Origin: an uncultured Mycoplasmatota bacterium
Lineage (GTDB): Bacteria; Bacillota_I; Bacilli_A; RF39; UBA660
Reading direction: 5' to 3'
Assembly: GCA_946402735.1 (NCBI GenBank)
Contig: CAMIXH010000001.1
Span: 378,908-442,907, forward strand
DNA: 64,000 nucleotides
Position numbers and translations under genes: made by a program. Within the stretch, counting starts at the first letter, position 1. Each line of letters opens with the position of its first letter. This document shows positions 2,826 through 59,690 of the stretch, piece after piece. Below the pieces are notes generated by a model. It was not told where the DNA came from. It did not search any database and worked only from the letters and a program-made list of their open reading frames with translations.

Positions 2826-3431
2826 CTATTTTAGTAATTCTTTATATTTTTGATTTATCCTATACATAGTATTTTCTATATTCTTTTTATCTTTATCAAG
2901 TAATACTGATATTTCAGCATTAGAAAGTCCTTTTAATCTTAACTCAAATATTTCGTTTTCACTTTCACTTAATTTAGCTCTTATTCTTGAAATAATATCA
3001 TCAGTTTCTTCTTTATCCAGTAATAAAGCAGATGGATCAGATGAATCATCTTTAAATATTTCATAAAAAGACGAATTAGAGTCTTCAATTAAATTATCAA
3101 GTGAATATGAATTATTTAATATATTATTTTTCTTTCTAAATGATTGTCTCATAGCTGAAATAATACTATTTTTAATACATGCATTAGCATAAGTATAAAA
3201 TGTATTATCTCTATTAGTATCAAAAGTTTTAATTGCATGTATTAATCCAATTAAACCTTCTTGATAAAGATCTGCTACTTCCATACCACGAATATCATAT
3301 TCTTTTAAATATTCTTTTAATATTTTTAAAATACAATTTCTATATTTATCTATTAATAATGTAGTAGCTTCTTCATTATTCTCAGAACATAAATATACTA
3401 GTTCATTATCATTTAGTGTTTTATAATCCAT
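2826..3431 (-). CDS. sigH: Sigma-70 family sigma factor, SigH-like
   Basis: Motifs LIDKYRNCI, YQEGLIGLIHAIKTFD, ANACIKNSIISAMR and the region 4 HTH LSNAEISVLLDKDKKNIENTMYRI. It lies directly downstream of rlmB, as in Bacillus (yacO-yacP-sigH). Confidence 0.6.
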   Translation of the reverse strand: MDYKTLNDNELVYLCSENNEEATTLLIDKYRNCILKILKEYLKEYDIRGMEVADLYQEGLIGLIHAIKTFDTNRDNTFYTYANACIKNSIISAMRQSFRKKNNILNNSYSLDNLIEDSNSSFYEIFKDDSSDPSALLLDKEETDDIISRIRAKLSESENEIFELRLKGLSNAEISVLLDKDKKNIENTMYRINQKYKELLK

Positions 3432-5378: not shown

Positions 5379-5828
5379 TTACCTACATCCATTTAATTGT
5401 GTTGTATATGTAGACCCACCCTCAGTAGTATAAGAATCTCCACAATATAAATATACTTTTCCATTTTTATATTTATACCCATCTAAATCATAGACAACAA
5501 TACCTCTGCAAGCAGTTGATTCTTTATAATAAACATCTTTAATTACTTTTCTTCCTTGAAGAGAACTTAAACAAAAATATACTTTATTTTCATCTATAAC
5601 ATTCTTATCTTCTTGACATGCATTTCGATATTCATCATCTATTGGATTTCTACAGTAATCCTCTAAATATAAATTAGCAGCATCAAGTACTTCATTTTCA
5701 CTTACTTTCATAGTATCATCTATAGCACCATTAAATAATTTAACAACACCAGGAATAATCATAATACTAAGCATTCCTATAATTGCAATAACTGCTAATA
5801 TCTCAATTAATGTGAAACCTTTTTTCAT
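5379..5828 (-). CDS. Type IV pilin-like / pseudopilin protein (prepilin N-terminal methylation motif), Cys-rich
   Basis: Starts MKKG-FTLIEILAVIAIIGML (Gly-1, Phe+1, Glu+5). I trimmed the start to ATG 5828, which has AGGTGA upstream; the track ORF runs to 5855. Confidence 0.75.
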   Translation of the reverse strand: MKKGFTLIEILAVIAIIGMLSIMIIPGVVKLFNGAIDDTMKVSENEVLDAANLYLEDYCRNPIDDEYRNACQEDKNVIDENKVYFCLSSLQGRKVIKDVYYKESTACRGIVVYDLDGYKYKNGKVYLYCGDSYTTEGGSTYTTQLNGCR

Positions 5829-5845
5829 ACAATCACCTATTATAT

Positions 5846-5875
5846 ATTTTAACATTAGAGTATGGTCAATTTCAA
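5846..5875 (-). promoter_or_regulatory. Promoter of the 149-aa pilin-like gene
   Basis: Minus strand: TTGAAA, 18 nt spacer, and extended -10 TGTTAAAAT. It lies just downstream of the rpmF terminator. Confidence 0.5.
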
Positions 5876-5883
5876 TACAATAT

Positions 5884-5910
5884 CAAAAAAAGTCAATCTA
5901 TTGATTGACT
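5884..5910 (-). terminator. Rho-independent terminator of rpmF
   Basis: AGTCAATC / GATTGACT 8-bp stem with a 4-nt loop and TTTTTTT tail. It overlaps the stop codon. Confidence 0.75.
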
Positions 5911-6124: not shown

Positions 6125-6226
6125 TTTTATTCCTCCTTCGCGCGATTTATAGTTTATAAACTTTTTTGCATTGCTTATGTATTTTCTCATAAATATATAA
6201 AAATATCAAGTAAAAAAGATTAAAAA

Positions 6227-6255
6227 TTGAAGAAATAATACTAATTTGTTATAAT
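6227..6255 (+). promoter_or_regulatory. Promoter of tmcAL
   Basis: TTGAAG, 17 nt spacer, TATAAT with a TGT extension. Confidence 0.6.
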
Positions 6256-6280
6256 AAATGCGTATTTAGGAGGATAAAAT

Positions 6281-7420
6281 ATGAATATAATTGGTATTGT
6301 TTGTGAATATAATCCATTTCATAATGGACATTTATATCAAATAAATGAAATAAAAAAAAGATATAAAGACTCTATAATAGTAGTAGTAACATCTACTTCA
6401 TTTACACAAAGAGGACAATTATCAGTGCTTAATAAATGGGATAAAACTAAAGTAGCTTTAATGAATAATGTTGATATTGTTGTAGAACTACCTTATGTAT
6501 ATTCAGTAGAATCAAGTGATATATTTGCTCACTACTCTATTAAATTATTAAATGAATTGAAAATAGACACATTAATATTTGGTAGTGAAAGTAATAATAT
6601 TGATCATTTAAAAGAATCAGCTAAAGTTCAATTAAATAACAAAGAATTTAATGGCTTAGTAAAGAAATATTTAAGTGATGGTATAAATTATCCTACTGCA
6701 TTAAATAACGCCTTAAAAGACCTAAAATGTGCTCCTATTAATACACCAAATGATCTACTAGGAATATCATATATTAAATCTATATTAAATAATAATTATA
6801 AAATTAATGTTGAACCAATACAAAGAACAAATGATTATCATGATATAGAATCAGATGATATTATTGCTTCTGCATCTAATATTAGAAATAGAATTATTAA
6901 TAATGAAGAATATAAACATATGGTTCCAAAGGTAGTATACGAATTATTAAAAGATAAAAAACAATCAGATAAATACTTTGAATATTTAAAATATAAAATA
7001 ATATCAGAAGATAATTTAGATAAATACTTAGATGTAGATGAAGGACTAAGTTCTAGAATAAAAAATGTCATTAATAAATCTAATACTTTAGAAGAACTAA
7101 TTCAAAATATAAAAACAAAAAGATATACATATAATAAAATATCAAGAATGTTAAACCATATATTATGTTCATTTACTAAAGATGAAAGAAAGAAAACTGA
7201 TAAATTAGAATATATTAGAATATTAGGATTCTCAAGTAATGGAAAGAAATATTTAAATAAGATTAAAAAGGATATTAAAACTCCTATATTAAATAAATAT
7301 GATACTAATTATAAAGCTTTAGAAATAGAAAAAAGAGTTAGTGAAATATACTCATTAATATATGAAGATATAATGGATTTAGAAATTCAAAATAAACCAA
7401 TAAAAAAAGATGAATTATAA
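6281..7420 (+). CDS. tmcAL: tRNA(Met) cytidine acetate ligase (YlbM/TmcAL family nucleotidyltransferase)
   Basis: Starts MNIIGIVCEYNPFHNGHLYQ, then MSxxFxQRG-like TSTSFTQRGQ and DIVVELPYVY. It is divergent from rpmF, as ylbM is in Bacillus. Confidence 0.8.
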   Translation: MNIIGIVCEYNPFHNGHLYQINEIKKRYKDSIIVVVTSTSFTQRGQLSVLNKWDKTKVALMNNVDIVVELPYVYSVESSDIFAHYSIKLLNELKIDTLIFGSESNNIDHLKESAKVQLNNKEFNGLVKKYLSDGINYPTALNNALKDLKCAPINTPNDLLGISYIKSILNNNYKINVEPIQRTNDYHDIESDDIIASASNIRNRIINNEEYKHMVPKVVYELLKDKKQSDKYFEYLKYKIISEDNLDKYLDVDEGLSSRIKNVINKSNTLEELIQNIKTKRYTYNKISRMLNHILCSFTKDERKKTDKLEYIRILGFSSNGKKYLNKIKKDIKTPILNKYDTNYKALEIEKRVSEIYSLIYEDIMDLEIQNKPIKKDEL

Positions 7421-7433
7421 TTCATCTTTTATT
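7403..7433. terminator. Bidirectional terminator between convergent tmcAL and the pilin-like gene
   Basis: AAAGATGAATT / AATTCATCTTT palindrome flanked by A-runs and T-runs. Confidence 0.7.
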
Positions 7434-8508
7434 TTATTGTACTATCATTATATTCTACATAATATGTATTGTTAGGACAATTTGAGCCATCACATTTTCT
7501 AATAGTACCAAATCTATTATGTGGATCAGTTAATGTACTATCTAATATTTCTATTTTTTGTAATGTCTCAGGATCATTAACCCATGGTTTAGAGAAAGTT
7601 GTCTTTTGAAGACTTCTAGTATAACCAAATATTACCATATTTGAAGTAGATGGACAGTTAGTTCTACATAAATCATTTGATATTTCAATATATACATCTG
7701 CTGGACTATAAGCATCTACTTTTGCACTATAGTTTCCTAAGTATTTATAACCGCTATAATTATCTAAATTAATCCTATTATAATCTGGTTTGTTAGCATA
7801 AGTAATACTTGCTAGTAATTCTTTTTTAGTAGAATCTCTGTATACTTTTACATAACTAGAAGTAGTAAACCTACCAATATCCACAGAAATTACCAAATCA
7901 TCTTCTTCACTACCCCTAGCACCAGAAATTATCCAAGCATGACTATTAGTATATACATAATTATCTTTTGTTGTTTTTAAACATATTTCTTTAACATCTT
8001 CTGTTAGAGAAAAACTACCAAGTGTTGTAATTAATTTATATCTACATCCTGGATTTGCACCTCTATAAGCATCATCTTGTGCTACATGTAATACATCATC
8101 TTCTGCAAGTACTGCTACTTGATCAGCATTACTAATATTAGTAGCAAGTAAATCTCCTTCATCATAAAAGTATTGGTATGTTCCATCTGTTGCATAGAAT
8201 TCAATTACTTTACCTGCTTTATTTAATCTAATTAAATAATCTATAGTTTTTCTTCCACTTAAAGATAATTCTTTTTCAGTACAATCAGAACATCTAGCAT
8301 ATGTAACATCTTTAGTATCAAACATAGAATCCATCATCCATTGTTGTTGAGCTGTTTTATATATTTCTTTACATTCAGTTAAGAATGAATTCTTTTTAGC
8401 ATCATTGAATAACTCTATAATATTTGGAAGTGCAACTATAACAAGTAATGATAAAATTGCAACAACAGCTAATAATTCTACTAATGTAAATCCTTTATTC
8501 TTTTCCAT
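7429..8508 (-). CDS. Type IV pilin-like protein with a large C-terminal extension (359 aa)
   Basis: Starts MEKNKG-FTLVELLAVVAILSLL. The first ~120 aa are paralogous to 8518..9312. Its Shine-Dalgarno AAGGAGA overlaps the upstream stop codon. Confidence 0.75.
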   Translation of the reverse strand: MEKNKGFTLVELLAVVAILSLLVIVALPNIIELFNDAKKNSFLTECKEIYKTAQQQWMMDSMFDTKDVTYARCSDCTEKELSLSGRKTIDYLIRLNKAGKVIEFYATDGTYQYFYDEGDLLATNISNADQVAVLAEDDVLHVAQDDAYRGANPGCRYKLITTLGSFSLTEDVKEICLKTTKDNYVYTNSHAWIISGARGSEEDDLVISVDIGRFTTSSYVKVYRDSTKKELLASITYANKPDYNRINLDNYSGYKYLGNYSAKVDAYSPADVYIEISNDLCRTNCPSTSNMVIFGYTRSLQKTTFSKPWVNDPETLQKIEILDSTLTDPHNRFGTIRKCDGSNCPNNTYYVEYNDSTIK

Positions 8509-8517
8509 ATATTCTCC

Positions 8518-9312
8518 TTAACAAGCACTACCCCATATTTCATATGTCATACCACTAGATATTTCATCACTTGGAAAAACATAACCATTTACATTCCTAT
8601 TATAAAGTAATTCATATGATGTTAAATAATGATTAGGTCCACATGCATATCTTATTGTTTCTGTAGATATACCATATACTCCATCATCAAGAAGATAATC
8701 ATGTACATTGCCATTATATTCTGAAGTTTGAGATTTATTTTCTACTTTAAATCCATATGTATTATAGCTACTATCTATCCATTCTCTCCAAGTCATACCT
8801 GGTTCATAAGTAATTGAATAAGATTTAATCATAAATGTATTTGCATCAACTTGAGCAGTATTTCCTATATATGGTTTATTATTCTCTATTTTAACTTTAC
8901 TATCATCAGCAAGTTCTACAACAGCAGAAGCAGTTTTAATGTTTTCAACATTTAAATCTCCTTCATCATAAATATATTGATAAGTTCCATCTGTTGCATA
9001 AAATTTAGTTACTTTACCAGCTTTATTAAATGTAATTAAATAATCAATTTCTTGTCTTCCACTTAGTTTTAATGATTTACCAGTACAAGTACTACATCTT
9101 TTATATGTTTGTGCTTCTGTTACTACCATAGAATCCATCATCCATTGATTTTGTCCCGTTTTATATATTTCTTTACATTCAGTTAAGAATGAATTCATTT
9201 TAGCATCATTAAACATTGATACTATATTTGGTAAAGCAATAATAACAAGTAATGATAAAATAGCTACTACTGCTAATAACTCAACTAAAGTAAATCCTTT
9301 ATTATTTTTCAT
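8518..9312 (-). CDS. Type IV pilin-like protein (264 aa)
   Basis: Starts MKNNKG-FTLVELLAVVAILSLL. Shares the core FLTECKEIYKT..WMMDSM..FYATDGTYQY with 7429..8508. Has its own promoter. Confidence 0.75.
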   Translation of the reverse strand: MKNNKGFTLVELLAVVAILSLLVIIALPNIVSMFNDAKMNSFLTECKEIYKTGQNQWMMDSMVVTEAQTYKRCSTCTGKSLKLSGRQEIDYLITFNKAGKVTKFYATDGTYQYIYDEGDLNVENIKTASAVVELADDSKVKIENNKPYIGNTAQVDANTFMIKSYSITYEPGMTWREWIDSSYNTYGFKVENKSQTSEYNGNVHDYLLDDGVYGISTETIRYACGPNHYLTSYELLYNRNVNGYVFPSDEISSGMTYEIWGSAC

Positions 9313-9329
9313 ATCATCACCTATTATAA

Positions 9330-9358
9330 ATTATAATAAATAATACTATATATTACAA
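9330..9358 (-). promoter_or_regulatory. Promoter of the tandem pilin-like pair
   Basis: Minus strand: TTGTAA, 17 nt spacer, TATAAT. It lies between the polA terminator and the 264-aa gene. Confidence 0.55.
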
Positions 9359-9362
9359 GATT

Positions 9363-9392
9363 TAATTATAAAAGAACACATAAGTGTTCTTA
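9363..9392 (-). terminator. Rho-independent terminator of polA
   Basis: AAGAACAC / GTGTTCTT stem with a 4-nt loop and TTTTAT tail. Confidence 0.7.
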
Positions 9393-12000: not shown

Positions 12001-12035
12001 ATAAAGAAAAAGAAAGTTAATAATAATTAACTTCC
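12001..12035 (-). terminator. Rho-independent terminator after the dnaE-pilin unit
   Basis: GGAAGTTAAT / ATTAACTTTC stem (one mismatch) with a TTTTTCTTT tail. It overlaps the pilin stop codon. Confidence 0.6.
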
Positions 12036-12473
12036 TTGTAATATTTGTCTAATTCTATCAAGTGTTAATCCATTAGTATCAATATTATCTACTAAATCAT
12101 CTACTGATAAATTAGTTATTGATATACCATTAGTATCTCTCTTTTTTAAAGTATTTGTTCCATCCCATACTAACATTTCAATTATTTTTCCACCAGCACT
12201 TACCTTAACATAATAATATAATTGTTTTCCAGTAAGAGGAACTTTATTTTCATCTCCTTCAAGTCTATAAAATACAGTACCATTATCTTCTTTAATAGAT
12301 TGTTTCATAATATTTAAATCAATTGTATTAAATCTTGATTTAATATCAACTATAAATGTTTCTTTCTTACTATTATTAAATAAACTAATTAGATTAGGTA
12401 CTACAAATATAGCAAGAACTGCAAGTATTGCAATTACTGCAAGTAGTTCAATTAAACTAAATCCCTTCTTCAT
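12027..12473 (-). CDS. Type IV pilin-like protein (148 aa, minimal core version of the family)
   Basis: Starts MKKG-FSLIELLAVIAILAVL. It starts 13 nt after the dnaE stop with AAAGGAAAG as Shine-Dalgarno, and is followed by a terminator. Confidence 0.75.
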   Translation of the reverse strand: MKKGFSLIELLAVIAILAVLAIFVVPNLISLFNNSKKETFIVDIKSRFNTIDLNIMKQSIKEDNGTVFYRLEGDENKVPLTGKQLYYYVKVSAGGKIIEMLVWDGTNTLKKRDTNGISITNLSVDDLVDNIDTNGLTLDRIRQILQGS

Positions 12474-22782: not shown

Positions 22783-23790
22783 TCACTTTAACTCTTTTAA
22801 ACTTTCTATTACATTATGAAGATTATCTGCTTTAATCAATTCTATTTTATAGTTATTTTTTTCTTTTTCTTTTAATGCTTCTTCATAATTCTCACTTGGT
22901 ACGATAAATACATTTGCTTTCTTATTAACTGCTCCTTTTAACTTGTATTTAACTCCATCTATTTTACCAACTCTACCATCTTCATATATAACACCAGTAC
23001 CACTAATTTTTAAGCCCTTAGTTAAGTCATATTCAGTAATTTTATTAAATATATCTAAAGCACATAAAAGTCCCCTAGAAGAGCCTGATTCATTGTCTTT
23101 AAATACATATTCTACTTTAGGATTAGTAGTAATACTTTTAAGTTCAGATAAAGTAATTCCAATATATACTTGTTCAGCCTCTTTATATAATACAGAATAA
23201 CACTCTTTTTCTTTATTATTTCTTATTATTTTTATATCTAATCTATCATTCTCTTTATATTTAGATATTTCATTTTTTAAATCTTCAAAACTAGTTATTT
23301 CTATTCCATTAATACTTTTAATAGAATCTCCTACTTTTAAATCAGTATTAGCTTCTTTTGAAATATGTGTTACTAATACATCAACAGAATCAATATTATA
23401 TGATATTTTTGCTTCATTAAAAGCAGCTATTATAGCATCATAACTAGTTTCTTTTAAATATATTTTATCTCTTTCAACTATTTCTTTCTCACTCTCATCA
23501 TCTATTCTCATTTTATCTAGACTAACAAGATCCCAAGAAGGAATTATATAAGATAATAATATATTAGGAATAGTACCATCTCTTGCCATAACATATGTAA
23601 GATTAAAAGTACCTTTGCTCTCATAAGAATTATCTACTTTAATTCTATTAGTTAAATCAACAAGTCCACCAGGAGAATATATATAATAATCAAGTTTAAT
23701 ATTAAAGAATAATAATATAAATAAAAGAATCAAATAAAATTTATAATTCTTTTTAATATCATTAAATATATAATTAAATATCTTTTTCAT
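22783..23790 (-). CDS. YlbL/SdrC-like membrane protein with PDZ domain and Lon-type S16 protease domain
   Basis: N-terminal TM segment, a PDZ segment (GDSIKSINGIEI) and a Lon_C-like segment (GSSRGLL...ISGTGVI..GKIDGVKYKLKGA). I trimmed the start to ATG 23790, which has AGGTGA upstream; the track start is GTG. Confidence 0.7.
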   Translation of the reverse strand: MKKIFNYIFNDIKKNYKFYLILLFILLFFNIKLDYYIYSPGGLVDLTNRIKVDNSYESKGTFNLTYVMARDGTIPNILLSYIIPSWDLVSLDKMRIDDESEKEIVERDKIYLKETSYDAIIAAFNEAKISYNIDSVDVLVTHISKEANTDLKVGDSIKSINGIEITSFEDLKNEISKYKENDRLDIKIIRNNKEKECYSVLYKEAEQVYIGITLSELKSITTNPKVEYVFKDNESGSSRGLLCALDIFNKITEYDLTKGLKISGTGVIYEDGRVGKIDGVKYKLKGAVNKKANVFIVPSENYEEALKEKEKNNYKIELIKADNLHNVIESLKELK

Positions 23791-23808
23791 ATATTTCACC
23801 TACTATCA

Positions 23809-23817: not shown

Positions 23818-23921
23818 CATTTATTTTTTAAAAGAATAAGAAGAAATGTCTAATTTTATTCTATCTGACAACTACCAAAAGGATAAATATAATAATCAAA
23901 AGGAATATCAAAAAAGTAAAA

Positions 23922-23960
23922 ATATAAATAAAAGAATACTTATTAGAAGTATTCTTTTTT
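23922..23960 (-). terminator. Rho-independent terminator after the 1028-aa gene
   Basis: AAAGAATACTT / AAGTATTCTTT stem with a 5-nt loop and a U-rich tail, immediately after the stop at 23964. Confidence 0.7.
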
Positions 23961-23963
23961 ATT

Positions 23964-26900
23964 TTAATTCTTTTGGCAGTTTACTATGTATGTGTTACCC
24001 ACGTGACTATTTTGAGAACATGGAGTTGATGATGATTTTACACAAGAATCAACAATCCTAGTAGTCTTTGGTCCTAAGCTATATCTATATCCACATTCTT
24101 TCCAAGTTCTATTTGCTGTACATGTATATTTGTATCCACCATCAGAAGAACATACTGATTCACCACAATTATCTAAACCAGGTAAATCTTTAATAAAGGT
24201 TTCTTGATAATAAACGTGCCAATCTTCATCCCAAACTTGCTTACATTTATATTCATGTTTTGTCCAAGTACATTTATAATCTTTAACTTTGCCTATATCA
24301 GATGCAGATGAGCATGCAGCACTAGATTCTCCAGGCCAAACACAATTATTTGTATTATTTTGTTTTGAAAGCCATGTAAGGGTTTTATTACATGTTTGTA
24401 AAGTTGCAGTCCATGTTTCTTCTTTAGTACAATTACTTGTATTTCCATAATATACTGTATGACTTGATGAACTATATCCGTTTCCACAAGAAGTACAATT
24501 TTCTCCAGAGGATGCAACATGTGTATTAGCTGAACATGATATATAACATTCTGAAAGAGATGATTTTCCAGCATCACTTGTATAGTCACCATTACATTGA
24601 ACTCTTCCTTGAATACTATTTTTGTAATTATATGTTCCTCCGCCACAATAGTATCCTGCTGTACATGTTGAACATGTTGAACTATTTGCATTTAAGAATT
24701 TACCACCCGAACATGTTACATAACAACTACTTATTGTTCCAGAACCAGCGGCACTTATCATTGAACCTGGGCATTGTGTTATTCCTTGAACACTGTTTCT
24801 ATAATTATATGTTCCACCTTCGCAATAGAAACTAGCTAAACATGTTGAACATGTTGAACCATTTGCTTCTAGATATTTTCCTCTGTCACAAGATATACTA
24901 CAGCTTCCAATTGATTGAGCGCCAGCATCACTTGTCATACTTCCTGGACATTTTGTTAATCCTTGATCTGCTGTACTACTAAAGTTGAATGTTCCACCTT
25001 CACAGTAATTACCAGCTGTACATGTTGAACATGCAGAAGCACCTTTTGGTAAATATGTTCCCTTTGCACATGTTATGCTACATGCTGCTTTAGAAGTTGA
25101 TTGCTCAGGACATGTCATTGAACCAGGACATGCATCACAAGTTACTGCTCCACCTGTAGAATAATGATTTACAGTACAATTCTTGCAATCTGCAAGGCCA
25201 ATTTCATCGGCATATTTACCAGCTGCACAGTTTTTACATCCATTAGCTTCGGTTGATTTACCTGTTCCCGTTCCTTCTTTTCCAGTTGGACATCCGTGAC
25301 GATCATTTCCTCCACCACAGTAGTATCCATCTTCACATGTTGTACAATCTTCTACTTTCTTTCCGCCAGTAGAATTCCTATATGTTCCAGCTGGACAATT
25401 TGCATTATGACTTCCACCTGTACAATATTTACCAATTGGACAAGTATCACATCCTGTATTTCCTTTTGTTGTATTATATGTTCCAGCCGTACATGTTGAA
25501 CACTCTGGTGTTCCTTCATTTGCAGCATATTTTCCTTCTAAGCATTGTGAACATCCTTCTGCCTCATTTTTCTTTCCTTCGCCTGTTCCTTCAGTTCCTC
25601 GTGGACATGCAGTATGATTTGCCCCACCTGTACAATAATAACCATCTTCACAAGGTTTACATGTAGATTGACCATCTGAATCTGTGTATGTTCCTGGTGG
25701 ACATTGACCACAATCAGGAGATGTTCCATCATTAAATGTTCCAGCTGGACATGCTTCAAAATTAGCTATCATCTGTACAGTGCTATTCTTTGTTGGATTT
25801 AAATTAACAAAATATCTATTTTTAGTTTTATCATTAAATGCACTTGTTACTGTATTTGCTGTAGTTCCTGTTTTTGCAGTAGTTGTGTTTCCATTAAATG
25901 TCCATCCTGCAAATTGATGTCCTGCTTTTTTAGCATTATCTATTTCTACTACTACATCATATGTTGCACTTGTTGGATGTAGTGTTCCAAATGTTCCACC
26001 ATTCAAATTATATGTTATTGTATATGTATTTTTTGTAATACTTGCATATAAAGTATGATTTGTATCTCTAAAATCATTAGTACTACCAAGGTTTAAATTT
26101 TTTGCATTACTAGTAAAATTACCATTAGCATCAATAACTTGGACACTACCATAATAGAATCCATTAAATGTCCATCCAGTTATTGTTGGTTTTATAATAC
26201 TAGTTATTGGATGTTTTGTTTCATAATCACTATACCAGTTTGTTCTATATTTAAAGTACACTGGTTTTGGATTTGGTTGTGTTGCATATGTTTTTGTTGT
26301 ACTTCTATAATCTTTGTCAGAATCCTTTATAGCTAAATCAAATATATATGTCTTTAACTCAAAGACTGCAGTACATGTTATATCCCTTTGAATATTCTCA
26401 ACTGTATAATTATTTTCATAAATATTTGCTCCCATTTTGATAAGTTCACATTCATCTTTTCTAGTATTGTAATAATAACCATTAGCTGGTATTAAGACAT
26501 ATTGAAGTGATTCTCCAGGTCTTACATATCTTTCACCTAAAGGACTTACTGTTCCATAACTTGTGTTATTAGATATGATATCAACTGCATAACCTTCTTC
26601 AAATGTCCATGGATTAGCATATGTTCCCTTTCCGCCAAAGATTGTTCCTGGTTTTATATACTCAGTAACTCTTGTTCCTGATAAACTATCAGCACTCTTT
26701 GATTGAATATATGCATCTACATAATACTTACGATTAGATTCAGCACTAGTAAGTGTCCAATACTCTTTTCCATTTGCTAAGTAACTTTGGTTTGAGTAAA
26801 CACTTAAATCAAATTCACTCTTGCTTAAAAGTCCACCATTTATAAATGCTGAACTATCTCCAAAACCTGTTTTTTCATAAACATAGTTTTTGCCAAATAA

Positions 26901-27050
26901 AAGGTATTTTCTTCTATCTCTAAAAGTAGTGATATAGTTATTTGTTTTTGTAACAGCTTCACCATATGTAGTTACTACAGCTGCATAAACAAACACTGGT
27001 ATAATAATTAATAATAAGAATAAAAATATAAAATACTTCTTATTTTTCAT
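23964..27050 (-). CDS. Large secreted protein: signal peptide, DUF6273-like N-domain, beta-rich middle, one Listeria-Bacteroides (Flg_new) repeat, about 600 aa of Cys-rich C-x2-C repeats
   Basis: Signal peptide MKNKKYFIFLFLLLIIIPVFVYA. Flg_new unit YTITYNLNGGTFG..GHQFAGWTF. From residue 434 there are repeated CxxCxxGxY units. There is no LPXTG motif and no C-terminal TM segment. Confidence 0.8.
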   Translation of the reverse strand: MKNKKYFIFLFLLLIIIPVFVYAAVVTTYGEAVTKTNNYITTFRDRRKYLLFGKNYVYEKTGFGDSSAFINGGLLSKSEFDLSVYSNQSYLANGKEYWTLTSAESNRKYYVDAYIQSKSADSLSGTRVTEYIKPGTIFGGKGTYANPWTFEEGYAVDIISNNTSYGTVSPLGERYVRPGESLQYVLIPANGYYYNTRKDECELIKMGANIYENNYTVENIQRDITCTAVFELKTYIFDLAIKDSDKDYRSTTKTYATQPNPKPVYFKYRTNWYSDYETKHPITSIIKPTITGWTFNGFYYGSVQVIDANGNFTSNAKNLNLGSTNDFRDTNHTLYASITKNTYTITYNLNGGTFGTLHPTSATYDVVVEIDNAKKAGHQFAGWTFNGNTTTAKTGTTANTVTSAFNDKTKNRYFVNLNPTKNSTVQMIANFEACPAGTFNDGTSPDCGQCPPGTYTDSDGQSTCKPCEDGYYCTGGANHTACPRGTEGTGEGKKNEAEGCSQCLEGKYAANEGTPECSTCTAGTYNTTKGNTGCDTCPIGKYCTGGSHNANCPAGTYRNSTGGKKVEDCTTCEDGYYCGGGNDRHGCPTGKEGTGTGKSTEANGCKNCAAGKYADEIGLADCKNCTVNHYSTGGAVTCDACPGSMTCPEQSTSKAACSITCAKGTYLPKGASACSTCTAGNYCEGGTFNFSSTADQGLTKCPGSMTSDAGAQSIGSCSISCDRGKYLEANGSTCSTCLASFYCEGGTYNYRNSVQGITQCPGSMISAAGSGTISSCYVTCSGGKFLNANSSTCSTCTAGYYCGGGTYNYKNSIQGRVQCNGDYTSDAGKSSLSECYISCSANTHVASSGENCTSCGNGYSSSSHTVYYGNTSNCTKEETWTATLQTCNKTLTWLSKQNNTNNCVWPGESSAACSSASDIGKVKDYKCTWTKHEYKCKQVWDEDWHVYYQETFIKDLPGLDNCGESVCSSDGGYKYTCTANRTWKECGYRYSLGPKTTRIVDSCVKSSSTPCSQNSHVGNTYIVNCQKN
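24417..25130 (-). repeat. About four tandem 59-60-aa Cys-rich coding repeats (CPGSM..C..C..G.Y..CSTC.AG.YC.GGT.N..)
   Basis: The repeat starts at residues 641, 701, 760 and about 819 of the 1028-aa protein. The DNA periodicity creates several spurious alternate-frame ORFs. Confidence 0.8.
25146..25661 (-). repeat. Internal ~105-aa duplication within the Cys-rich region
   Basis: C(K/T)xCEDGYYCxGG..CPxGxEGTGxGK..GCxxCxxGKYA occurs at residues about 464 and about 569. Confidence 0.7.
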
Positions 27051-27120
27051 AGTATCACCTTTCTCTTACTCTACTATAAAAAATTATATCATATGTATTA
27101 TTTTCTTGCAAAACTTTTCA

Positions 27121-27153
27121 ATAAAAAAACAATGAATTATATTTCATTGTTTT
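27121..27153 (-). terminator. Rho-independent terminator after the 207-aa pseudopilin-like gene
   Basis: AAACAATGAA / TTCATTGTTT 10-bp stem, 6-nt loop and U-run. It separates the two-gene operon from the 1028-aa gene. Confidence 0.75.
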
Positions 27154-27161
27154 TGTTATTC

Positions 27162-27785
27162 TTATAATTCTATAGAAGCGTAATAATAATCTCCATTACC
27201 TCTTTCAAATACACCTATCATATAAGTAATTGGATTATTACATTTAGAAGTATCTGAATTATTATTAATATAATTACCATTACTATCTATAGTATTTAAA
27301 TCATTACATTTCTTAAGAGTTTTCATATATTCAATAGTACCATTATCATATATTTCAACTGCTTTTAATTCACCTCTTCCTTTAGGATTACCATAAACAT
27401 CTAAATCATTTAATTCATTCCTAATATTTTCAATAACATACAAATGTACAAGTCCCATATCATCAAATACTTGATTACAATCAAATAATAATTCTCCCAT
27501 TTTAGTAGTTGAACAATTATACGAACTGGTTACTTCACGATCTGCTCTAAATGATATACCTTTATGAGCTAAATTAGTGCAAGCCATTCCATAATTACAT
27601 ACATCATCAGTACCAAGTTTGCTTAAAACATAAACTAGATATTTGTCTGATGTTTTATCATATTTCTCTTTCTCTTTTGTTTTTCTAGTTACCAATGAAT
27701 AACTTGAAATAAGCATTGCAAGTGATAAAGCAACTACAACTAATACAACTATACTTTCTACAAATACAAAACCATCTTTTTTCAT
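27162..27785 (-). CDS. Pseudopilin-like protein (207 aa), Cys-containing
   Basis: Starts MKKDG-FVFVESIVVLVVVALSL (Gly-1, Phe+1, Glu+5). Its Shine-Dalgarno AGGAGG overlaps the upstream stop codon. Confidence 0.6.
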   Translation of the reverse strand: MKKDGFVFVESIVVLVVVALSLAMLISSYSLVTRKTKEKEKYDKTSDKYLVYVLSKLGTDDVCNYGMACTNLAHKGISFRADREVTSSYNCSTTKMGELLFDCNQVFDDMGLVHLYVIENIRNELNDLDVYGNPKGRGELKAVEIYDNGTIEYMKTLKKCNDLNTIDSNGNYINNNSDTSKCNNPITYMIGVFERGNGDYYYASIEL

Positions 27786-27794
27786 ATTTTCCTC

Positions 27795-29000
27795 CTAATC
27801 TCCTACTATATATGGATTATCTGCTGTTCCATTTCCAGTTATTATTCTTATATTACCATTCAATGAGATAACTGGAATAACTTCAGCAGTTTCTGTTACA
27901 TGTTTTCCTTGCATAACTCCATTATTTCCATTTACTGCAACAACTTTATTCACATTTGAAGTTGATGTAGAAAATGGTGAAGATGTCCAAAATGTTTTTC
28001 CAGATGTAAACAGATAAAAATTTCTATTAACATGAGTTAATCCAGCATGAATACCACCTAAATACATATCATCAGTATCAGTTAAATAACCACCAGCTAA
28101 TAAAACTTCATCAGCAGTTAATAAACCAACTGGATAAGATAATGTTCTATCGGTAACAGTATATCTATCATTTTGTTCTGAACAAGTAAGTGAGAAATAA
28201 TTAATCAAAGTATCTGGATTATATGGGTTAATATTTGTGTTACTCTTATATACTGGCATAATACCTTTTGCATGATAATATGTCATATCTGAAGTGTGTT
28301 TAAAATTTGTTTTATTATTACAAAATATAGTATTTTTAGATACTGCATATGTATAATCTTCTTCAATAATATTAGTAACATACCAATCATTTAATACATC
28401 TATTACATTACTATGAGTATTTACTTCATCATAACTAGGTATTCTTCCATCTTGTTCATCTACCAAACTAACCGTTTCATTATTACTAAAACTAACAGTC
28501 CCAACGCTAACATTTGGTTTATGTGCTAAATCTTTACATTTATCATCATTTGTATATCCGTCAAATACAATTCTTAAACTTCCATCTTCATTAGTTCTAA
28601 GTATTCTGAAACACATTGATGCATAAATTAAATGGTTATTTTCAACACTACCTCTAAAGAAATATATTCTATTAGATTTACCATCATTATTTTCATCAGT
28701 TAACGTATCATCACTAATATAGAATAAACCATTTCCATTTCCTTGGGAATCACTAGCTGGTCTAACCAGTTTTAATTTGTCATATGATTGTGGTGTATTA
28801 TCTTCAAGTAATTTACTTAAAGCATAACTTCTATTCTGTTTATCTTTATTAATATCATCATCTATTTGATAATTAATTGCCTCTAAGAATTTGTCTTTTT
28901 CTATATAAGTTCTTAATATAGCTAACATTAAGAACAAGAAAATGACTAAAAAAGTATATACTAAAGCCATTGAAACAAAACCATTTTTACCTTTTTTCAT
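27795..29000 (-). CDS. Pseudopilin-like protein lacking Glu+5 (401 aa) with C-terminal DUF6273-like domain
   Basis: Starts MKKGKNG-FVSMALVYTFLVIFLFLML. The C-terminus has YPVGLLTADEV, FWTSSP, VIPVISL and GNGTADNPYIV. Confidence 0.55.
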   Translation of the reverse strand: MKKGKNGFVSMALVYTFLVIFLFLMLAILRTYIEKDKFLEAINYQIDDDINKDKQNRSYALSKLLEDNTPQSYDKLKLVRPASDSQGNGNGLFYISDDTLTDENNDGKSNRIYFFRGSVENNHLIYASMCFRILRTNEDGSLRIVFDGYTNDDKCKDLAHKPNVSVGTVSFSNNETVSLVDEQDGRIPSYDEVNTHSNVIDVLNDWYVTNIIEEDYTYAVSKNTIFCNNKTNFKHTSDMTYYHAKGIMPVYKSNTNINPYNPDTLINYFSLTCSEQNDRYTVTDRTLSYPVGLLTADEVLLAGGYLTDTDDMYLGGIHAGLTHVNRNFYLFTSGKTFWTSSPFSTSTSNVNKVVAVNGNNGVMQGKHVTETAEVIPVISLNGNIRIITGNGTADNPYIVGD

Positions 29001-53305: not shown

Positions 53306-56023
53306 TTATGGTTGCCATACCCCAGCAAAATTGCTGCCTAATGAGGCTTCAATTGCTGATAATTCATTATTATTATCTACATTAACTTTTCCATATTTTT
53401 GCTTTAACATCCAATTAATAGCATTTGTTTTTCCTATAATAGCATTTTGAGTATAATGCTTAGCAATTCCAATATTTGGTAAATTAGTTAAATTAGTATA
53501 TCTAATATTACCTCTTCTTCTATAATAAGCAGTTAATTCTTTTGAAAAGTTAATAATATTAAAGTTTTCGTCATTTGAAGATATTACCCATATTGGTGTT
53601 TTTAAATCATATGGTGGAGTTGTATCACATTTATGATTATCATCTCCTCCATCTAACGCCCTATCATAAATAGTACTTGGAGTAAATGCACACCTTGAAT
53701 AAACCTTAGCAGGACTCATTGGAATTAAAACTGAGAATAGGCTTCTTTGATCATTATTATTTTTAGCTCTAATAATAACACCTTTTCCTGATTTTAATTT
53801 TGTTTTTTTACTATCACTATAATAAATACTTCTACCTAAAATACTATTATATTCTTTAACTTCTGCAGCAGTCGTTCCATATTCTTTTGCTATACTATCT
53901 AATGTAGTATTATTATCACTTGCAATGTATGTAATATGTTCTTCTAAGAATCCTAAGAATAATGTTCCATATCCTCCTTGACTACTTCCAGTAACAAGAA
54001 TATTATCAAAATCAATATTATATAATTTAATAATAGAATACATTATTTCAATAGCATTAAATATTGAATCTTCCCAGTTACATGTTGTACTAGATGGAGC
54101 AACTATTACTGCTCTAACATCAGCATTCTTATCATTATTTATTGGTTCTGTTCTATAATATAATGCTTTTTTTAAATAATGATTATTTTGCTTTTTCTCA
54201 TTTAAATCTTCTTTTTTACACTCATATCCATATCCACCATGAAGTGCAATTATTAAAGGTAATTTATCAGTTGGTGATACGTTTGGACCCACATATAAAT
54301 AGTAAGGTATTTTATTTTTATTAAAAGGATTATCAACCAATTTTTCTTTATCTTTGGATGCTTTCTTACTAAAGTAATATCCTTTTTTATTATATGTAAT
54401 GTAATTTGAATGACTAACGCTACAATTAACTGTTACTTTCTTTCCATCTTGATCTGTTATTTCAACCTTTGGATTTATTAATAAAGTAAAATTACTCGTA
54501 GCTTTATAATTACAATTAGAATTATTTTGAAGTGTTTTATTATCAGAAATAAATCTATAGTTTTTAGCTACTCCTTTTGTAACGTTAACATTTAATTTAG
54601 CAAGTCCATATCCATTTTCATATTCTCCAGTACATGTTGCTGTTATACTTGGGGTATTATCAGTTTTCTTCCATCCTGCATATAATACAGTATCGCTTTT
54701 CTTATCATATGACATATTTGATGTATTCTGTGCTGTATAGTACTGATTTCCCTTTGTATAATCTGTATTATCATACCATCCCATAAATTTATAACCACTT
54801 CTTGTTGGTATTGTAGAAGAAATTGCTGGCATAGGTTTACCTAACACAGCTTGAACATTTTTTGGAACACTACCAGAACCACCATTTATATTAAATCCAA
54901 CTGTATATTTAGTTGTTGTTACTACTTTGCTCCATCCAGCATATAGAATTAGATTTCTTTCAACATCATACGTTCTAACTGGTTTAAACTTATTATCATA
55001 GTATTGTTTTCCCTTTGTATAATTTGTATTATCATACCAACCTGTAAAAGTATATCCACTTCGAGTTGGAATAATATAATTAACTGTTGGTAGCATTTCA
55101 TCATATTTAACAGTCAAAGCGCCATACGCTTGCGTACTTTCTCCACCATTTAAATTAAAACTAATATTATACTTATTTGCTTCCCATCCAGCATACAATA
55201 TTAAATCTTCTAAAATGTCATTAATTAATTGATTTCCATTATTATCGTAATATTGTTTTCCTTTTGTATAATCTGAGTTATCATACCATCCCATGAATTT
55301 ATAACCTGTTCTATATGGTACTACACTTGAATTCAATTCAGTATTACCTTCATTATTAATACTAATTGATTTACCTTTTTCAACATTACCTCCATTTAGA
55401 TTAAATGAAACATCATATTTTTTATTTTCTACTTGTTGTTTCTTAGAGGCTTCTTTTTTCCAACCAGCATATAAAATAACATTCTTTTTTAAATCATATG
55501 ATTTTACTGGTTTACATTTATCATTATAGTATTTTGTTCCCTTTTTGTAATTTGAATTATCATACCATCCCGCAAAAACATATCCAACACGTGTTGGTAT
55601 TTCATTGCTTATAGTTTTTAATTCTTCACCATATTTAATAGATATCTTATCTTTTTGTCCACCTTCGCCACCATTTGGATTAAAAGTAATATTAAATAAT
55701 GTTTCTTTTTCAGGCTCATTTATAACAATTGATTTACTAGTCTCTGTTTCTTCTTCCCAATGTGCAAATAATGTAGTATTACCATTAAAGTCTTGATCTA
55801 AATTAATAATATTTCCTTTTGATTTATCATCAAACCAACCTACAAATCTTTTATTTTCACATGTTGGCATATCAAAAGTACAATCTAACTTTTTGTTTTT
55901 TACATCACATATATGTTCTTCTAAACCTGAGCAATTATTAACAAATAATACTATTGTTCTTTCACAGCCACAGTTAATTAGACAAACTGCCATAATTATA
56001 AATATAAATATTACTTTTTTCAT
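53306..56023 (-). CDS. Secreted multi-repeat protein: Listeria-Bacteroides (Flg_new) repeats plus C-terminal alpha/beta-hydrolase (esterase) domain with a LysM-like insert
   Basis: Signal peptide MKKVIFIFIIMAVCLINCGC. Repeated F/YxxNGG...GYxFxGWYD..LYAGW units. LIIALHGG and the nucleophile elbow GSSQGG. LysM-like segment TLDSIAKEYGTTAAEVKEYNSI. I trimmed the start to ATG 56023. Confidence 0.75.
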   Translation of the reverse strand: MKKVIFIFIIMAVCLINCGCERTIVLFVNNCSGLEEHICDVKNKKLDCTFDMPTCENKRFVGWFDDKSKGNIINLDQDFNGNTTLFAHWEEETETSKSIVINEPEKETLFNITFNPNGGEGGQKDKISIKYGEELKTISNEIPTRVGYVFAGWYDNSNYKKGTKYYNDKCKPVKSYDLKKNVILYAGWKKEASKKQQVENKKYDVSFNLNGGNVEKGKSISINNEGNTELNSSVVPYRTGYKFMGWYDNSDYTKGKQYYDNNGNQLINDILEDLILYAGWEANKYNISFNLNGGESTQAYGALTVKYDEMLPTVNYIIPTRSGYTFTGWYDNTNYTKGKQYYDNKFKPVRTYDVERNLILYAGWSKVVTTTKYTVGFNINGGSGSVPKNVQAVLGKPMPAISSTIPTRSGYKFMGWYDNTDYTKGNQYYTAQNTSNMSYDKKSDTVLYAGWKKTDNTPSITATCTGEYENGYGLAKLNVNVTKGVAKNYRFISDNKTLQNNSNCNYKATSNFTLLINPKVEITDQDGKKVTVNCSVSHSNYITYNKKGYYFSKKASKDKEKLVDNPFNKNKIPYYLYVGPNVSPTDKLPLIIALHGGYGYECKKEDLNEKKQNNHYLKKALYYRTEPINNDKNADVRAVIVAPSSTTCNWEDSIFNAIEIMYSIIKLYNIDFDNILVTGSSQGGYGTLFLGFLEEHITYIASDNNTTLDSIAKEYGTTAAEVKEYNSILGRSIYYSDSKKTKLKSGKGVIIRAKNNNDQRSLFSVLIPMSPAKVYSRCAFTPSTIYDRALDGGDDNHKCDTTPPYDLKTPIWVISSNDENFNIINFSKELTAYYRRRGNIRYTNLTNLPNIGIAKHYTQNAIIGKTNAINWMLKQKYGKVNVDNNNELSAIEASLGSNFAGVWQP
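54671..55915 (-). repeat. One partial and four full ~85-aa Flg_new-type coding repeats
   Basis: The units end in LFAHW, LYAGWKK, LYAGWEA, LYAGWSK and LYAGWKK. Confidence 0.8.
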
Positions 56024-56111
56024 ATAATACACTTCCTATCATACAATACAAGTATATAGCAATAATCATATTTAAGCAAATAAAAAAGCATTATTTTATA
56101 ATACTTTTTTG

Positions 56112-57249: not shown

Positions 57250-57277
57250 AATAAAAAGATAGTTTATAAACTATCTT
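57250..57277 (-). terminator. Hairpin terminator after the sigma factor gene
   Basis: AAGATAGTTTATAAACTATCTT palindrome overlapping the stop codon, with a U-run. Confidence 0.65.
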
Positions 57278-58473
57278 CTATATGACAATTTAGCGCAATC
57301 ATTTGGATCGAATCCTTTAATTGTTTTATTTCTTCTTAATTTTCTTAAAGCTTTTGCTTCAATTTGTCTAATTCTTTCTCTAGTTACATGGAATTCTCTT
57401 CCAACATCCTCTAAAGTTCTAGTTCTACCATCTTCAAGCCCATATCTTAAAGCAATTACTGATTTTTCTCTAGGAGTTAGATTATTAGCATTATAGAATG
57501 CTTCTCTAAATTCATTCAAAAATATTAAATGAGATGGATCGTCTAAAGAAGTATCCTCTATAAAATCACCAAGTTCATTTGTATCCATTTCTACTCCATC
57601 TCCTATTGGAGCATTTAATGATACAGTGTTTTCAAATTTTTTAGTGAAATCAAGTTTTTCTTGACTAACACCTAATTCTTCAATAATTTTTTCATCACTT
57701 GGTTCTTCACCAAAGTTATCAAATTCATAATTACGAATAAATCTTCTAATTCTATTCATTTCATCATGTAGATGAACAGGAATTCTAATTGTTCTTGATT
57801 GATCTGCTAATGCACGAGAACAAGCTTGTCTAATCCACCAGGTTGCATATGTTGAAAATTTATATCCTTTATTTACATCAAACTTTGTAGCAGCTTTATC
57901 TAAACCAATATTTCCTTCTTGGATTAAATCTAAGAATGCTAATCCCAAACCAGTATATTTTTTAGCAATACTTACAACTAATCTTAAGTTACCTTCAATT
58001 AGTTTTAGTTTAGCTTTCTCATCGCCTTCAAGAATTTTATATCCTAACTCTTTTTCTTCTTCAGCAGTTAATAATGGAATAGCTCCTATTTCACTTAAAT
58101 ATTGTTTTACATTATCATCACTGAAATAATCAGCTGTTGCTTTAGTAAAATCTTCATTTTCTACTTGTTCTGATTTTAATTCTATTCCATTTCTCTCAGC
58201 ATATACTAAAGCTAAAACATAAAATAAATTATTACCTAAAAAAGTACTATAATCATCTAACTTTAATATTTCTGAAACCATAAAACTGATATTCTTATCA
58301 TTATCAATTAAGTATTCAGCATCGCTTAATTCAATACTATTATCATCACCAACATATTGTATTAAATCTTTACAGTTTCTCATTTGAACTAAGAAACCAC
58401 CTGATTTAAAATGATTCTTAGCATAATTAGAAATTATATCTACAATATTTGTATTATTTTCAATATTAGCCAT
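57271..58473 (-). CDS. rpoD: Primary-type (group 1/2) sigma-70 factor, RpoD/SigA-like
   Basis: Motifs [65 protein letters not shown] and [29 protein letters not shown] trimmed the start to ATG 58473, which has AGAGGGGGA upstream. The N-terminal ~130 aa are not recognisable as region 1.1. Confidence 0.8.
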
Positions 58474-58503
58474 TTTGTATTCCCCCTCTTTCGAACGGGT
58501 CAT

Positions 58504-58595: not shown

Positions 58596-59690
58596 ATGAT
58601 ATTATCAATTTGTGATGTCCCAGCAGTGTTAAAAGTATTAAAAATAGTAAAGATAGTTATCACTATAATCAAGATTGCTGTCCCTATTCTACTAATAATA
58701 GCAGCAATGCTTGATTTAGTTAAAGCAGTTACTAATTCAGAACTTAATAAAATGTCAAAACCTATTATAAATAAAGTAATTGTGGCTGTTCTGGTATTTT
58801 TAATACCAACATTTGTAAATACTATATTAACTATTACAATGACAGAAAATGAATATCAAAAATGCTTTAATAATGCTACTGATGAAAGAATAAGAGAGAT
58901 AAATATACAAACAATGGATAAACTAATTGAAAAAGCAAAAGAGGATGAATCAACTAGCTCAATTGGTGATGCTAAAGGATATCTTGTTAATATCAAAGAT
59001 CAAGATTTAATAGAAAAATATCAAAAAGAAATAGAAGAATTAGAAAAGAAACTTGAAGAAAAAAGAAAGAAAGAGGAAGAAGAAAGAAAAAAGAAACAAC
59101 AAGCAGATAATCCTCCTTCAGGACCAGGATATAATCCAGGTGGAACATTTAATGGTAATAAGTTTACTGTTAGTGAAGATGATTTATTCTTTATAACTAA
59201 AGTATCTGTATGTGAACAAGGTGATGCTACTGGAGCGGCTGCTGAAGCTTCTCTAATCGCAAATAGATATGATTTATATGGAAAGAATAAATATTCTACA
59301 ATAACTGATTATGTAAGAAACTCTGGATGGTGGTCTTGTGCTAAAAGTAAAAGAACAATAAATGTTAAAGACGAACATATAGCTGCTGTTAGAAATGTAA
59401 TTGTTAATGGAGTTAGAACCCTACCTCTATATGTAGATGAACATGACTGCTTTGATTGTAATAAATCATTATGTTCAAATGGTAACAGAGGTGACATTTG
59501 TAAAATAGTAACAAATGGTAGAACAATGGAAAGTATGTCTGATATTAAAAATAGAAGTAACTATATAAGTGGTCAAACAGTTTTATATAACAAATATGGT
59601 GGAACATACACATTCTATAGTTTCCCAACTAGTCATTCTGATCCATTTGGTTATACGGCAACTGGTTATAAAAGAGCAACAGGCAATTAA
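58596..59690 (+). CDS. Membrane-anchored protein: two-TM N-terminal module (paralog of 1659..2816), charged linker, C-terminal SleB/CwlJ-like (Hydrolase_2-like) domain
   Basis: The N-terminus MILSICDVPAVLKVLKIVKIVITIIKIAVPILL..LVKAVTNSELNKMSKPIINKVI..FLIPTFV matches 1659..2816. It has a KE-rich linker. The C-terminus LFFITKVSVCEQGDATGAAAEASLIANRYDL resembles the SleB-type motif. Confidence 0.4.
   Translation: MILSICDVPAVLKVLKIVKIVITIIKIAVPILLIIAAMLDLVKAVTNSELNKMSKPIINKVIVAVLVFLIPTFVNTILTITMTENEYQKCFNNATDERIREINIQTMDKLIEKAKEDESTSSIGDAKGYLVNIKDQDLIEKYQKEIEELEKKLEEKRKKEEEERKKKQQADNPPSGPGYNPGGTFNGNKFTVSEDDLFFITKVSVCEQGDATGAAAEASLIANRYDLYGKNKYSTITDYVRNSGWWSCAKSKRTINVKDEHIAAVRNVIVNGVRTLPLYVDEHDCFDCNKSLCSNGNRGDICKIVTNGRTMESMSDIKNRSNYISGQTVLYNKYGGTYTFYSFPTSHSDPFGYTATGYKRATGN

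Follow-up and report, generated by a model that had tools for sequence, protein, structure and literature searches.

Minor pilins that carry modules larger than a pilin have already been described. In the monoderm Streptococcus sanguinis, the PilABC proteins are encoded in a minor-pilin operon. One subunit, PilA, has a degenerate class III signal that lacks the glutamate at position 5 (Glu5) and is missed by prediction tools, and another, PilC, has a grafted adhesion lectin module; the proteins have been proposed to prime and cap the filament (PMC9934059, PMC8179133). Such modular pilins are widespread (PMC8179133). In the GspH-I-J-K tip of type II secretion system (T2SS) pseudopili and type IVa pili, GspK is also Glu5-less, unusually large and encoded beside Glu5-bearing partners, and its place is thought to be the very tip, since no further subunit can stack on it. 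The type IVa pili of diderms also have PilY1 (PilC), a very large Sec-exported protein that is not a pilin and is encoded beside minor pilins; it has been stated to be absent from monoderms (PMC9934059). Here we describe a locus of an uncultured Mycoplasmatota bacterium, probably of an RF39-like lineage of low-GC gut Bacilli, found in a stretch of 64,000 nucleotides (nt) that was analysed as a whole and is called the window below. Genes for two pilin-like proteins, of 401 and 207 amino acids (aa), lie there next to the gene for a secreted protein of 1028 aa, the giant.

On balance we favour, with moderate confidence, a reading in which the two smaller genes form a conserved operon of non-canonical type IV minor-pilin-type proteins, the Glu5-less subunit bearing a lectin module, and the giant is an adhesin-like surface protein working with the filament system. 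The 401-aa gene comes first in the pair. Its TAG stop codon lies inside the Shine-Dalgarno sequence TAGGAGG, 5 nt ahead of the ATG of the 207-aa gene, and on this sequence evidence the two genes are translationally coupled. An earlier note on this DNA, made from the letters alone, had described the two-gene unit, with coordinates and lengths that are exact, and had proposed class III-like N-termini for both products, with Glu5 in the shorter protein only; the N-termini hold across the families.

The 207-aa protein begins MKKDG/FVFVESIVVLVVVALSLAMLI (the slash marks the putative cleavage point), with the leader MKKDG, a putative mature start at F6 and Glu5 present (MKKDG/FVFVE). Glycine at -1, phenylalanine at +1 and glutamate at +5, followed by a hydrophobic stretch, are kept in 118 of 120 database homologues, which places this N-terminus beyond chance; the two exceptions are truncated or mis-started, and G5, F6 and E10 are invariant in the aligned family. 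The 401-aa protein begins MKKGKNG/FVSMALVYTFLVIFLFLMLAIL, with the leader MKKGKNG and a putative mature start at F8 (MKKGKNG/FVSMA). In 88 homologues the G/F step is followed by threonine, alanine or serine at +5, and glutamate is found there in none. Sequence, family alignments and AlphaFold2 (AF2) models agree that each protein has a short basic leader, glycine at -1 and a hydrophobic stretch that opens a helix. In the 401-aa model (predicted local distance difference test, pLDDT, 89; predicted template-modelling score, pTM, 0.83) this is a long, continuous alpha-1 helix of residues 8-56 leading into a beta-rich ectodomain, and in the 207-aa model (pLDDT 82) a helix of residues 4-41 precedes a globular part. 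Homologues of the 207-aa protein are labelled 'type II secretion system protein' or 'pseudopilin PulG' by NCBI and JGI. Some of them (L091 9305-10558; P0259-P0261, P0269-P0271) have gained a C-terminal extension of 120-200 aa with faint choline-binding-like repeats, so the partner pilin can itself be modular.

The pair might instead not be filament subunits at all, and consist of bitopic membrane proteins with uncleaved signal-anchors that form a lectin-type receptor or adhesin complex at the cell surface. Several results point that way, most of which also weigh against the minor-pilin reading. Neither protein matches the prepilin profiles PF07963 or TIGR02532 at E-values up to 1. No pilin fold, with alpha-1 packed on an antiparallel beta-sheet, was recovered for the 207-aa protein: the long helix is predicted, but Foldseek of its model against the PDB gave no meaningful match and no solved pilin. 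For the 401-aa protein Foldseek returned lectin-like matches. The 401-aa protein has no Glu5, and the locus is isolated from assembly genes. A plain anchor, however, hardly explains the near-invariance of Gly-Phe and Glu5 in the 207-aa family or the Gly-Phe retained at the same position in the 401-aa protein. Real pilins with a degenerate class III signal and no Glu5 are on record, namely PilA and GspK (PMC9934059), and in outgroup loci the operon continues with a canonical prepilin 10 nt downstream. We regard the anchor explanation as unlikely.

On the evidence of its model and its family, the 401-aa ectodomain is a divergent DUF6273 or C-type-lectin-like domain. DUF6273 has been described in gut phages as a C-type-lectin-like (C-lec) receptor-binding domain and a target of diversity-generating retroelements (DGRs) (PMC10743442; bioRxiv 10.1101/2024.10.15.618418). 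When the 401-aa model was compared by Foldseek with the predicted viral structures of BFVD, DUF6273 proteins were the top matches (E 3e-5 to 1e-3, probability 0.99-1.0), with DUF1566 and receptor-binding proteins ranking below them. Against the PDB the top matches were C-type lectin domains, including the C-terminal domain of Legionella Lcl, all of them non-significant. A Pfam scan of the window's own protein gave no DUF6273 match and a weak Lcl_C match only (E 0.37), but DUF6273 (PF19789) is matched by 13 of 45 aligned family members (best E 1.4e-6) and is on record, as a precomputed match, for the homologues P0075, P0079 and P0114. The Lcl C-terminal domain (DUF1566, PF07603; PDB 8q4e) is likewise a bacterial C-type-lectin-like adhesin module, and its matches fall in the region that the 401-aa protein has in common with the giant, at levels below significance (E 0.37 by sequence, 0.5 by structure); its protein context, a collagen-like Legionella adhesin, is different.

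A related module stands at the head of the giant. Pairwise BLASTP of the two proteins gave no significant alignment, and the similarity is visible with profiles only. Aligning the family profiles with hhalign placed residues 71-151 of the giant against residues 290-400 of the 401-aa protein (probability 96.4%, E 1.4e-9) and paired GGLLSKSEF with VGLLTADEV, EYWTLTS with TFWTSSP, TRVTEYIKP with VIPVISL, and GKGTYANPW with GNGTADNPY. An offline hhalign run of the 401-aa protein against the head gave 97% (E 1e-10), whereas a reversed-profile control gave 0.1% and the 207-aa family 2%. Among 224 open reading frame (ORF) segments of the window the two profiles are each other's best non-self match (E ~1e-3), and the hidden Markov model of the head directly matches 401-family members (L092, E 4e-9; several paralogues, 1e-6). 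By these profile comparisons the C-terminal core of the 401-aa protein and the head of the giant are homologous, remotely but really. What they share is the ~85-120-aa C-type-lectin-like core of a DUF6273-type domain, not the whole ectodomain. The recurrence of the domain, with the same motif pairs, had been observed in the earlier note, and it is confirmed by the profiles.

The rest of the giant is of another kind. Behind a Sec signal peptide (MKNKK, a hydrophobic core and VYA/A) and the head come a beta-rich middle and a long C-terminal half of CXXC-rich repeats, in which 61 of its 63 cysteines lie, all after residue 433. No LPXTG-type cell-wall anchor motif was found in a scan of the protein. 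The Pfam scan lists Flg_new, Ephrin_rec_like, Ig_SibA and NCD3G only; Flg_new and Ephrin_rec_like are sub-threshold here and are also on record for homologues of the giant. The Cys-rich part includes tandem repeats of 177 nt (59 aa), and GC content rises to 36% at window positions 24001-26000, against ~25% elsewhere, presumably because of Cys/Gly-rich coding. In the strain whose 401-aa homologue is 99% identical, the head and middle of the giant are 84-96% identical to those of the window (the head alone 94-96%), whereas the Cys-rich body is 10-48% identical. The giant is most likely an adhesin-like, strain-variable surface protein whose conserved head resembles a module for carriage or anchoring.

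The association of DUF6273 with DGRs raises the question of whether such an element drives this variation, with the lectin-like modules as its targets. The phage proteins, among them the tentaclins and Mtd-like DGR targets (PMC10743442), are of the same fold family as the 401-aa ectodomain, and the tentaclins are similar to the start of the giant in their layout, in which Ig-like domains come after an N-terminal C-lec domain. The genes described here differ in being cellular and chromosomal, and their module sits on a pilin-like helix or heads Cys-rich giants. Within the 64 kb there is neither a reverse transcriptase nor a template-repeat-like copy of either module, and it is the lectin-like parts that are conserved between strains and the Cys-rich body that varies. 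We rejected the DGR reading, which is barely credible on these data.

Thirteen loci, the window included, were compared to ask what is kept beside the pair (L088/L089 counted as one; L097 is a short contig with the 207-aa homologue and a giant only). Wherever flanks are present the pair is adjacent and lies between lon and ylbL/radC, at 401-aa identities to the window from 99% to ~30%. A giant of the head type adjoins it in seven loci and in two gene orders: downstream in the window, L093 (401-aa identity 99%), L096 (64%), L085 (60%), L081 (43%; 16 nt downstream and frameshifted in the assembly) and L097, and upstream in L084 (49%). This third slot is empty in L079 (66%), L083 (43%), L091 (41%; here the 207-aa homologue has the C-terminal extension) and L092 (30%; pair order inverted). 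In the outgroups, L088/L089 (~35-40%) and L090 (~30%), it is filled by a canonical prepilin that starts MNKKGFTLVEL 10-11 nt after the pair and passes the N_methyl threshold. That prepilin is itself a giant of 1086 aa with eight Flg_new repeats in L088/L089 and a protein of 413 aa in L090; its orthologue in L081, 7 kb downstream, has Flg_new and seven Ephrin_rec_like repeats. No homologue of it was found in the window. The same type of body can thus follow a pilin N-terminus in one protein and a signal peptide with a lectin-like head in another. The identity of the giant's head and middle to the window declines (57, 43 and 36%) alongside that of the 401-aa (60, 49 and 43%) and 207-aa proteins (77, 68 and 49%), which suggests that they have long been neighbours here.

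Only the pilin-like orthologue is paired in this way: none of 78 loci with paralogues of the 401-aa ectodomain has a 207-like neighbour. These paralogues are many: species-representative genomes hold more than 571 such DUF6273-type loci, a single genome having many of them, frequently as tandem arrays. Several paralogues (L029, L050, L055, L064 and others) have TasA/SipW-type N-termini (GTYAYF-like) and a beta-sandwich domain in place of the pilin-like helix; the tandem arrays of this type comprise 2-5 genes.

Nearly every gene of the window, which has a GC content of 25%, is on the minus strand. The gene order is lon, the 401-aa gene, the 207-aa gene, the giant's gene, a gene for a YlbL-like PDZ/Lon_C protein, radC and rplU-ysxB-rpmA (Table 1). 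The lon terminator that the earlier note placed upstream of the pair is unsupported, its hairpin folding at -1.8 kcal/mol (z-score +0.9), so that read-through from lon into the pair is possible. In L079, L081, L083, L085, L088, L090 and L091, lon is separated from the pair by genes for a protein of ~270 aa and for a LysM protein of ~205 aa that by eye is SpoVID-like; both are missing in the window and its 99% strain, which is why the window's pair begins 78 nt after lon.

Table 1. Positions in the window of the pair, the giant and other features named in the text.
Feature	Coordinates	Strand	Evidence or remark
lon	29079..31397		
Gene for the 401-aa Glu5-less pilin-like protein	27795..29000	-	ORF list; family N-termini; AF2 model
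Continuous helix of the 401-aa protein (aa 8-56)	28833..28979	-	AF2 model
Beta-rich ectodomain of the 401-aa protein	27798..28832	-	AF2 model
Part of the 401-aa gene homologous to the giant's head (aa 284-401)	27798..28151	-	hhalign
Translational coupling, TAG stop within Shine-Dalgarno TAGGAGG	27786..27800	-	sequence
Gene for the 207-aa pilin-like protein	27162..27785	-	ORF list; family conservation; AF2 model
Intrinsic-terminator-like hairpin and U-run 3' of the 207-aa gene	27112..27162	-	fold -12.2 kcal/mol, z -3.98
Sigma-70-type promoter-like site TTGCAA-17-TATAAT with extended TG, 5' of the giant's gene	27083..27111	-	sequence
Gene for the 1028-aa secreted giant	23964..27050	-	ORF list; sub-threshold Pfam matches; Cys count
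Sec signal peptide of the giant	26982..27050	-	
Head of the giant, compact C-type-lectin-like module (aa 24-152)	26595..26981	-	hhalign; representative-cluster search
Beta-rich middle of the giant (aa 153-430), with InlB-B/Flg_new-like repeat	25761..26594	-	
Ephrin-receptor-like CXXC Cys-rich repeats of the giant (aa 431-870)	24441..25760	-	
177-nt tandem repeats	24595..25082		
Cys/Trp-rich C-terminus of the giant	23967..24440	-	
Terminator-like hairpin and U-run 3' of the giant's gene	23900..23966	-	-10.5 kcal/mol, z -2.9
YlbL-like PDZ/Lon_C protein gene	22783..23799		
Canonical prepilin genes	5379..5828, 7429..8508, 8518..9312, 12027..12473	-	scattered singly among housekeeping genes (lgt, polA, dnaE)
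Further large secreted proteins	53306..56032, 60034..62865	-	
Paralogous proteins of 385 and 364 aa	1659..2816, 58596..59690	-, +	
Sigma-factor-like genes	2826..3431, 57271..58503		

It is quite possible, though it is not the explanation we prefer, that the giant functions independently of the pair. The lon-ylbL interval would then be a permissive slot for variable surface-protein genes and the shared domain a clade-wide adhesin module, and the head might tether the giant to a wall glycopolymer of the cell itself, or recognise a shared external ligand. Much of the evidence on this side also weighs against our own reading. In the window the giant's gene is a transcription unit of its own with its own promoter, preceded by a terminator, as the earlier note had described it together with the Sec signal. 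The giant is absent beside the pair in four loci, and among 11 independently fetched loci of head-bearing giants with usable flanks 3 are next to the pair and 8 are not. A giant elsewhere in what is apparently the same genome has a head 94% identical to the one described here. Other giants have a different small partner: L087 (3-11634) has a tandem of two head-bearing giants, and after each of them comes an unrelated single-pass membrane protein of ~272 aa (the two copies 51% identical), homologues of which were sought in the window and the other loci and not found. The module itself is extremely common in the clade. A head profile search of 1.84 billion representatives found 561 clusters, 173 of them below 1e-30, and in each of the 150 matches listed, to proteins of 150-1850 aa, the alignment begins at or near residue 1. 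With a DUF6273-type module so hugely expanded, the shared domain alone is no evidence of partnership.

Against independence, the giant keeps its place beside the pair from 99% to 43% identity of the 401-aa protein and through a change of gene order (L084), and in L081 it begins 16 nt after the 207-aa homologue. In the outgroups the slot holds a prepilin protein, and the giants fused to a pilin N-terminus have the same body domains (Flg_new in L088; Flg_new and Ephrin_rec_like in L081). A conserved head on a hypervariable body is what would be expected of a carrier or anchor module. A related metagenome contig, L101, has a head-bearing giant as the third gene of a pilC-pilD operon: lepA, a T2SSF platform gene, a prepilin peptidase gene (7225-7986; A24_N_bact and Peptidase_A24) and a 950-aa giant follow one another with 12-nt gaps (5641-10850). 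This giant is among the eight without the pair nearby. In L098 a giant lies four genes from lepA-pilC, in an L101-like region with the giant on the other side.

These results partly support the earlier note's interpretation of a pilus-displayed module with an adhesin-like partner. The conserved pilin-like pair, its Glu5-less member with a large binding domain, the homologous head and the adjacency of the giant in seven of the thirteen loci all stand; an argument for partnership from domain sharing does not. The same mixed outcome applies to the co-occurrence of the three genes in relatives, where the pair is kept and often has the giant beside it, but the three are not strictly co-conserved.

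Three observations raise the possibility that filaments present the giant, as they do PilY1 in diderms: it recurs beside the pair, a pilin N-terminus can take the place of its own, and in L101 a giant shares an operon with pilC and pilD. We tentatively suggest that a signal peptide plus lectin-like head could be a non-pilin carrier that docks about 560 clusters of hypervariable giants onto type IV filaments of monoderm gut Bacilli, possibly through the homologous domain of the 401-aa protein held by the 207-aa protein. It would serve monoderms as a functional counterpart of PilY1 whose cargo is interchangeable, in parallel to the giants with a true pilin N-terminus. This stays a minority reading in view of the giant's own transcription unit, its losses, the many giants found elsewhere and the abundance of the module, and we think it rather unlikely. 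Like PilY1, which combines a conserved carrier module with variable modules that also occur fused to pilins, the giant is very large, exported by Sec, not a pilin, and found beside the minor-pilin-type pair (seven loci) or pilus genes (L101), and it has a conserved head and a hypervariable body whose domains recur in pilin-fused giants. This supports the idea that it may work like PilY1, not that it belongs to that family: it has no match in Pfam to a PilY1-type beta-propeller, its conserved module is N-terminal and lectin-like, and its putative filament association is drawn from gene neighbourhood.

If the pair does act as minor pilins, the machinery that assembles them would be encoded elsewhere. 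ORF reading, a motif scan and phmmer with relatives' PilB, PilC and PilD found no pilus ATPase, platform protein or prepilin peptidase in the window, in agreement with the earlier note, and the pair adjoins lon and ylbL outside any pil, com or gsp cluster, which counts against the minor-pilin reading. So does the outcome of comparing the profiles of the three families with PDB sequences, where no match was obtained. Relatives do encode PilB-type (L064, L065, L107), PilC-type (L098, L101) and PilD-type (L101) proteins. The window has four canonical prepilin genes with the motif KGFTL[IV]E, whose products all pass PF07963 and TIGR02532. Those for the 359-aa and 264-aa proteins are tandem paralogues that share their N-terminal ~130 aa (78% DNA identity) and differ in their C-terminal modules.

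The pair could also be minor pilins of a competence (Com) pseudopilus, of the ComGF/ComGG kind, serving DNA uptake, with the giant irrelevant to it. The best family matches of the 207-aa N-terminus are indeed ComGE, ComGF and ComGD (E 0.002-0.12), together with XpsI, and the hosts are gut Bacilli with reduced genomes. ComGG-type subunits lack Glu5. These matches, however, are weak, span the N-terminal helix alone and fall far below cut-offs. ComG minor pilins are not known to have a lectin-like ectodomain of 300 aa, the locus lacks a comGA, comGB or comGC context, and the relatives' ATPase scores higher with PilB and GspE than with ComGA (483 against 270 bits). We consider a competence role highly improbable.

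Our preferred reading, that of a minor-pilin pair with an adhesin-like giant, suggests the following picture. From sequence and models, both proteins of the pair would enter the membrane through the short basic leader and hydrophobic helix, and a prepilin peptidase encoded elsewhere would cut after the conserved glycine. The Glu5-bearing 207-aa and the Glu5-less 401-aa protein may then assemble to prime or cap a type IV filament, the models for this step being GspK among HIJK and PilABC of S. sanguinis. Canonical pilins like those scattered in the window would make up the filament itself. The 401-aa protein would sit on top, with its DUF6273 or C-type-lectin-like ectodomain exposed as a putative ligand-binding module. 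The giant's gene would fill a variable third slot, which holds a prepilin protein in distant relatives, in one case fused to a giant body, and a Sec-secreted, strain-hypervariable giant in the window's lineage.

The earlier note did not recognise the combination as a described system, but the modular minor pilins, PilABC, GspK and the PilY1 idea are close precedents. As in the known tip complexes, several pilins are encoded in one operon and one of them is Glu5-less, the outgroups adding a third, canonical prepilin; unlike the known complexes, the pair lies between lon and ylbL/radC in relatives and not within a pil, gsp or com machinery locus. PilABC differs in that its large module is not on the Glu5-less subunit, as it is here, and is concanavalin-A-like or vWA where ours is DUF6273 or C-type-lectin-like. 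Our genes also lie outside any pil locus, have no sequence similarity to PilABC and are known from sequence and models. GspK has an alpha-domain inserted in the pilin fold, whereas the lectin-like domain of the 401-aa protein follows the helix; and where the Gsp complex is GspHIJK, here there are two conserved subunits (three in outgroups), no gsp context and a monoderm host. The modular minor-pilin or tip-complex type is thus already known. Presentation of the giant by a filament would be an extension new for monoderms, credible but unproven. Published work on the pilins of TANB77 and on gut lineages with reduced genomes (PMC11680825, PMC12306168) deals with other clades and has no bearing on the locus.

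The window encodes two further large secreted proteins, one with five Flg_new repeats and the other, by eye, with Big_2-type-like repeats; both seem, by eye, to end in an esterase-type domain. Two paralogous proteins of 385 and 364 aa have a common N-terminal membrane region and no Pfam or NCBIfam match, and each is adjoined by one of two sigma-factor-like genes.

Uncultured gut Bacilli with reduced genomes are common in humans and animals, and to our knowledge almost nothing is known of their attachment to hosts or partners. On the evidence of this locus, they may use type IV filament components to display lectin-like modules and very large, strain-variable, Cys-rich surface proteins. If a filament does carry the giant, monoderms would have their first non-pilin tip adhesin, a class that current reviews call absent there, and the head would be a new N-terminal targeting module common to hundreds of proteins. 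Even on the conservative reading, two protein families that had no annotation acquire names and a role that can be tested, as does DUF6273 outside phages.

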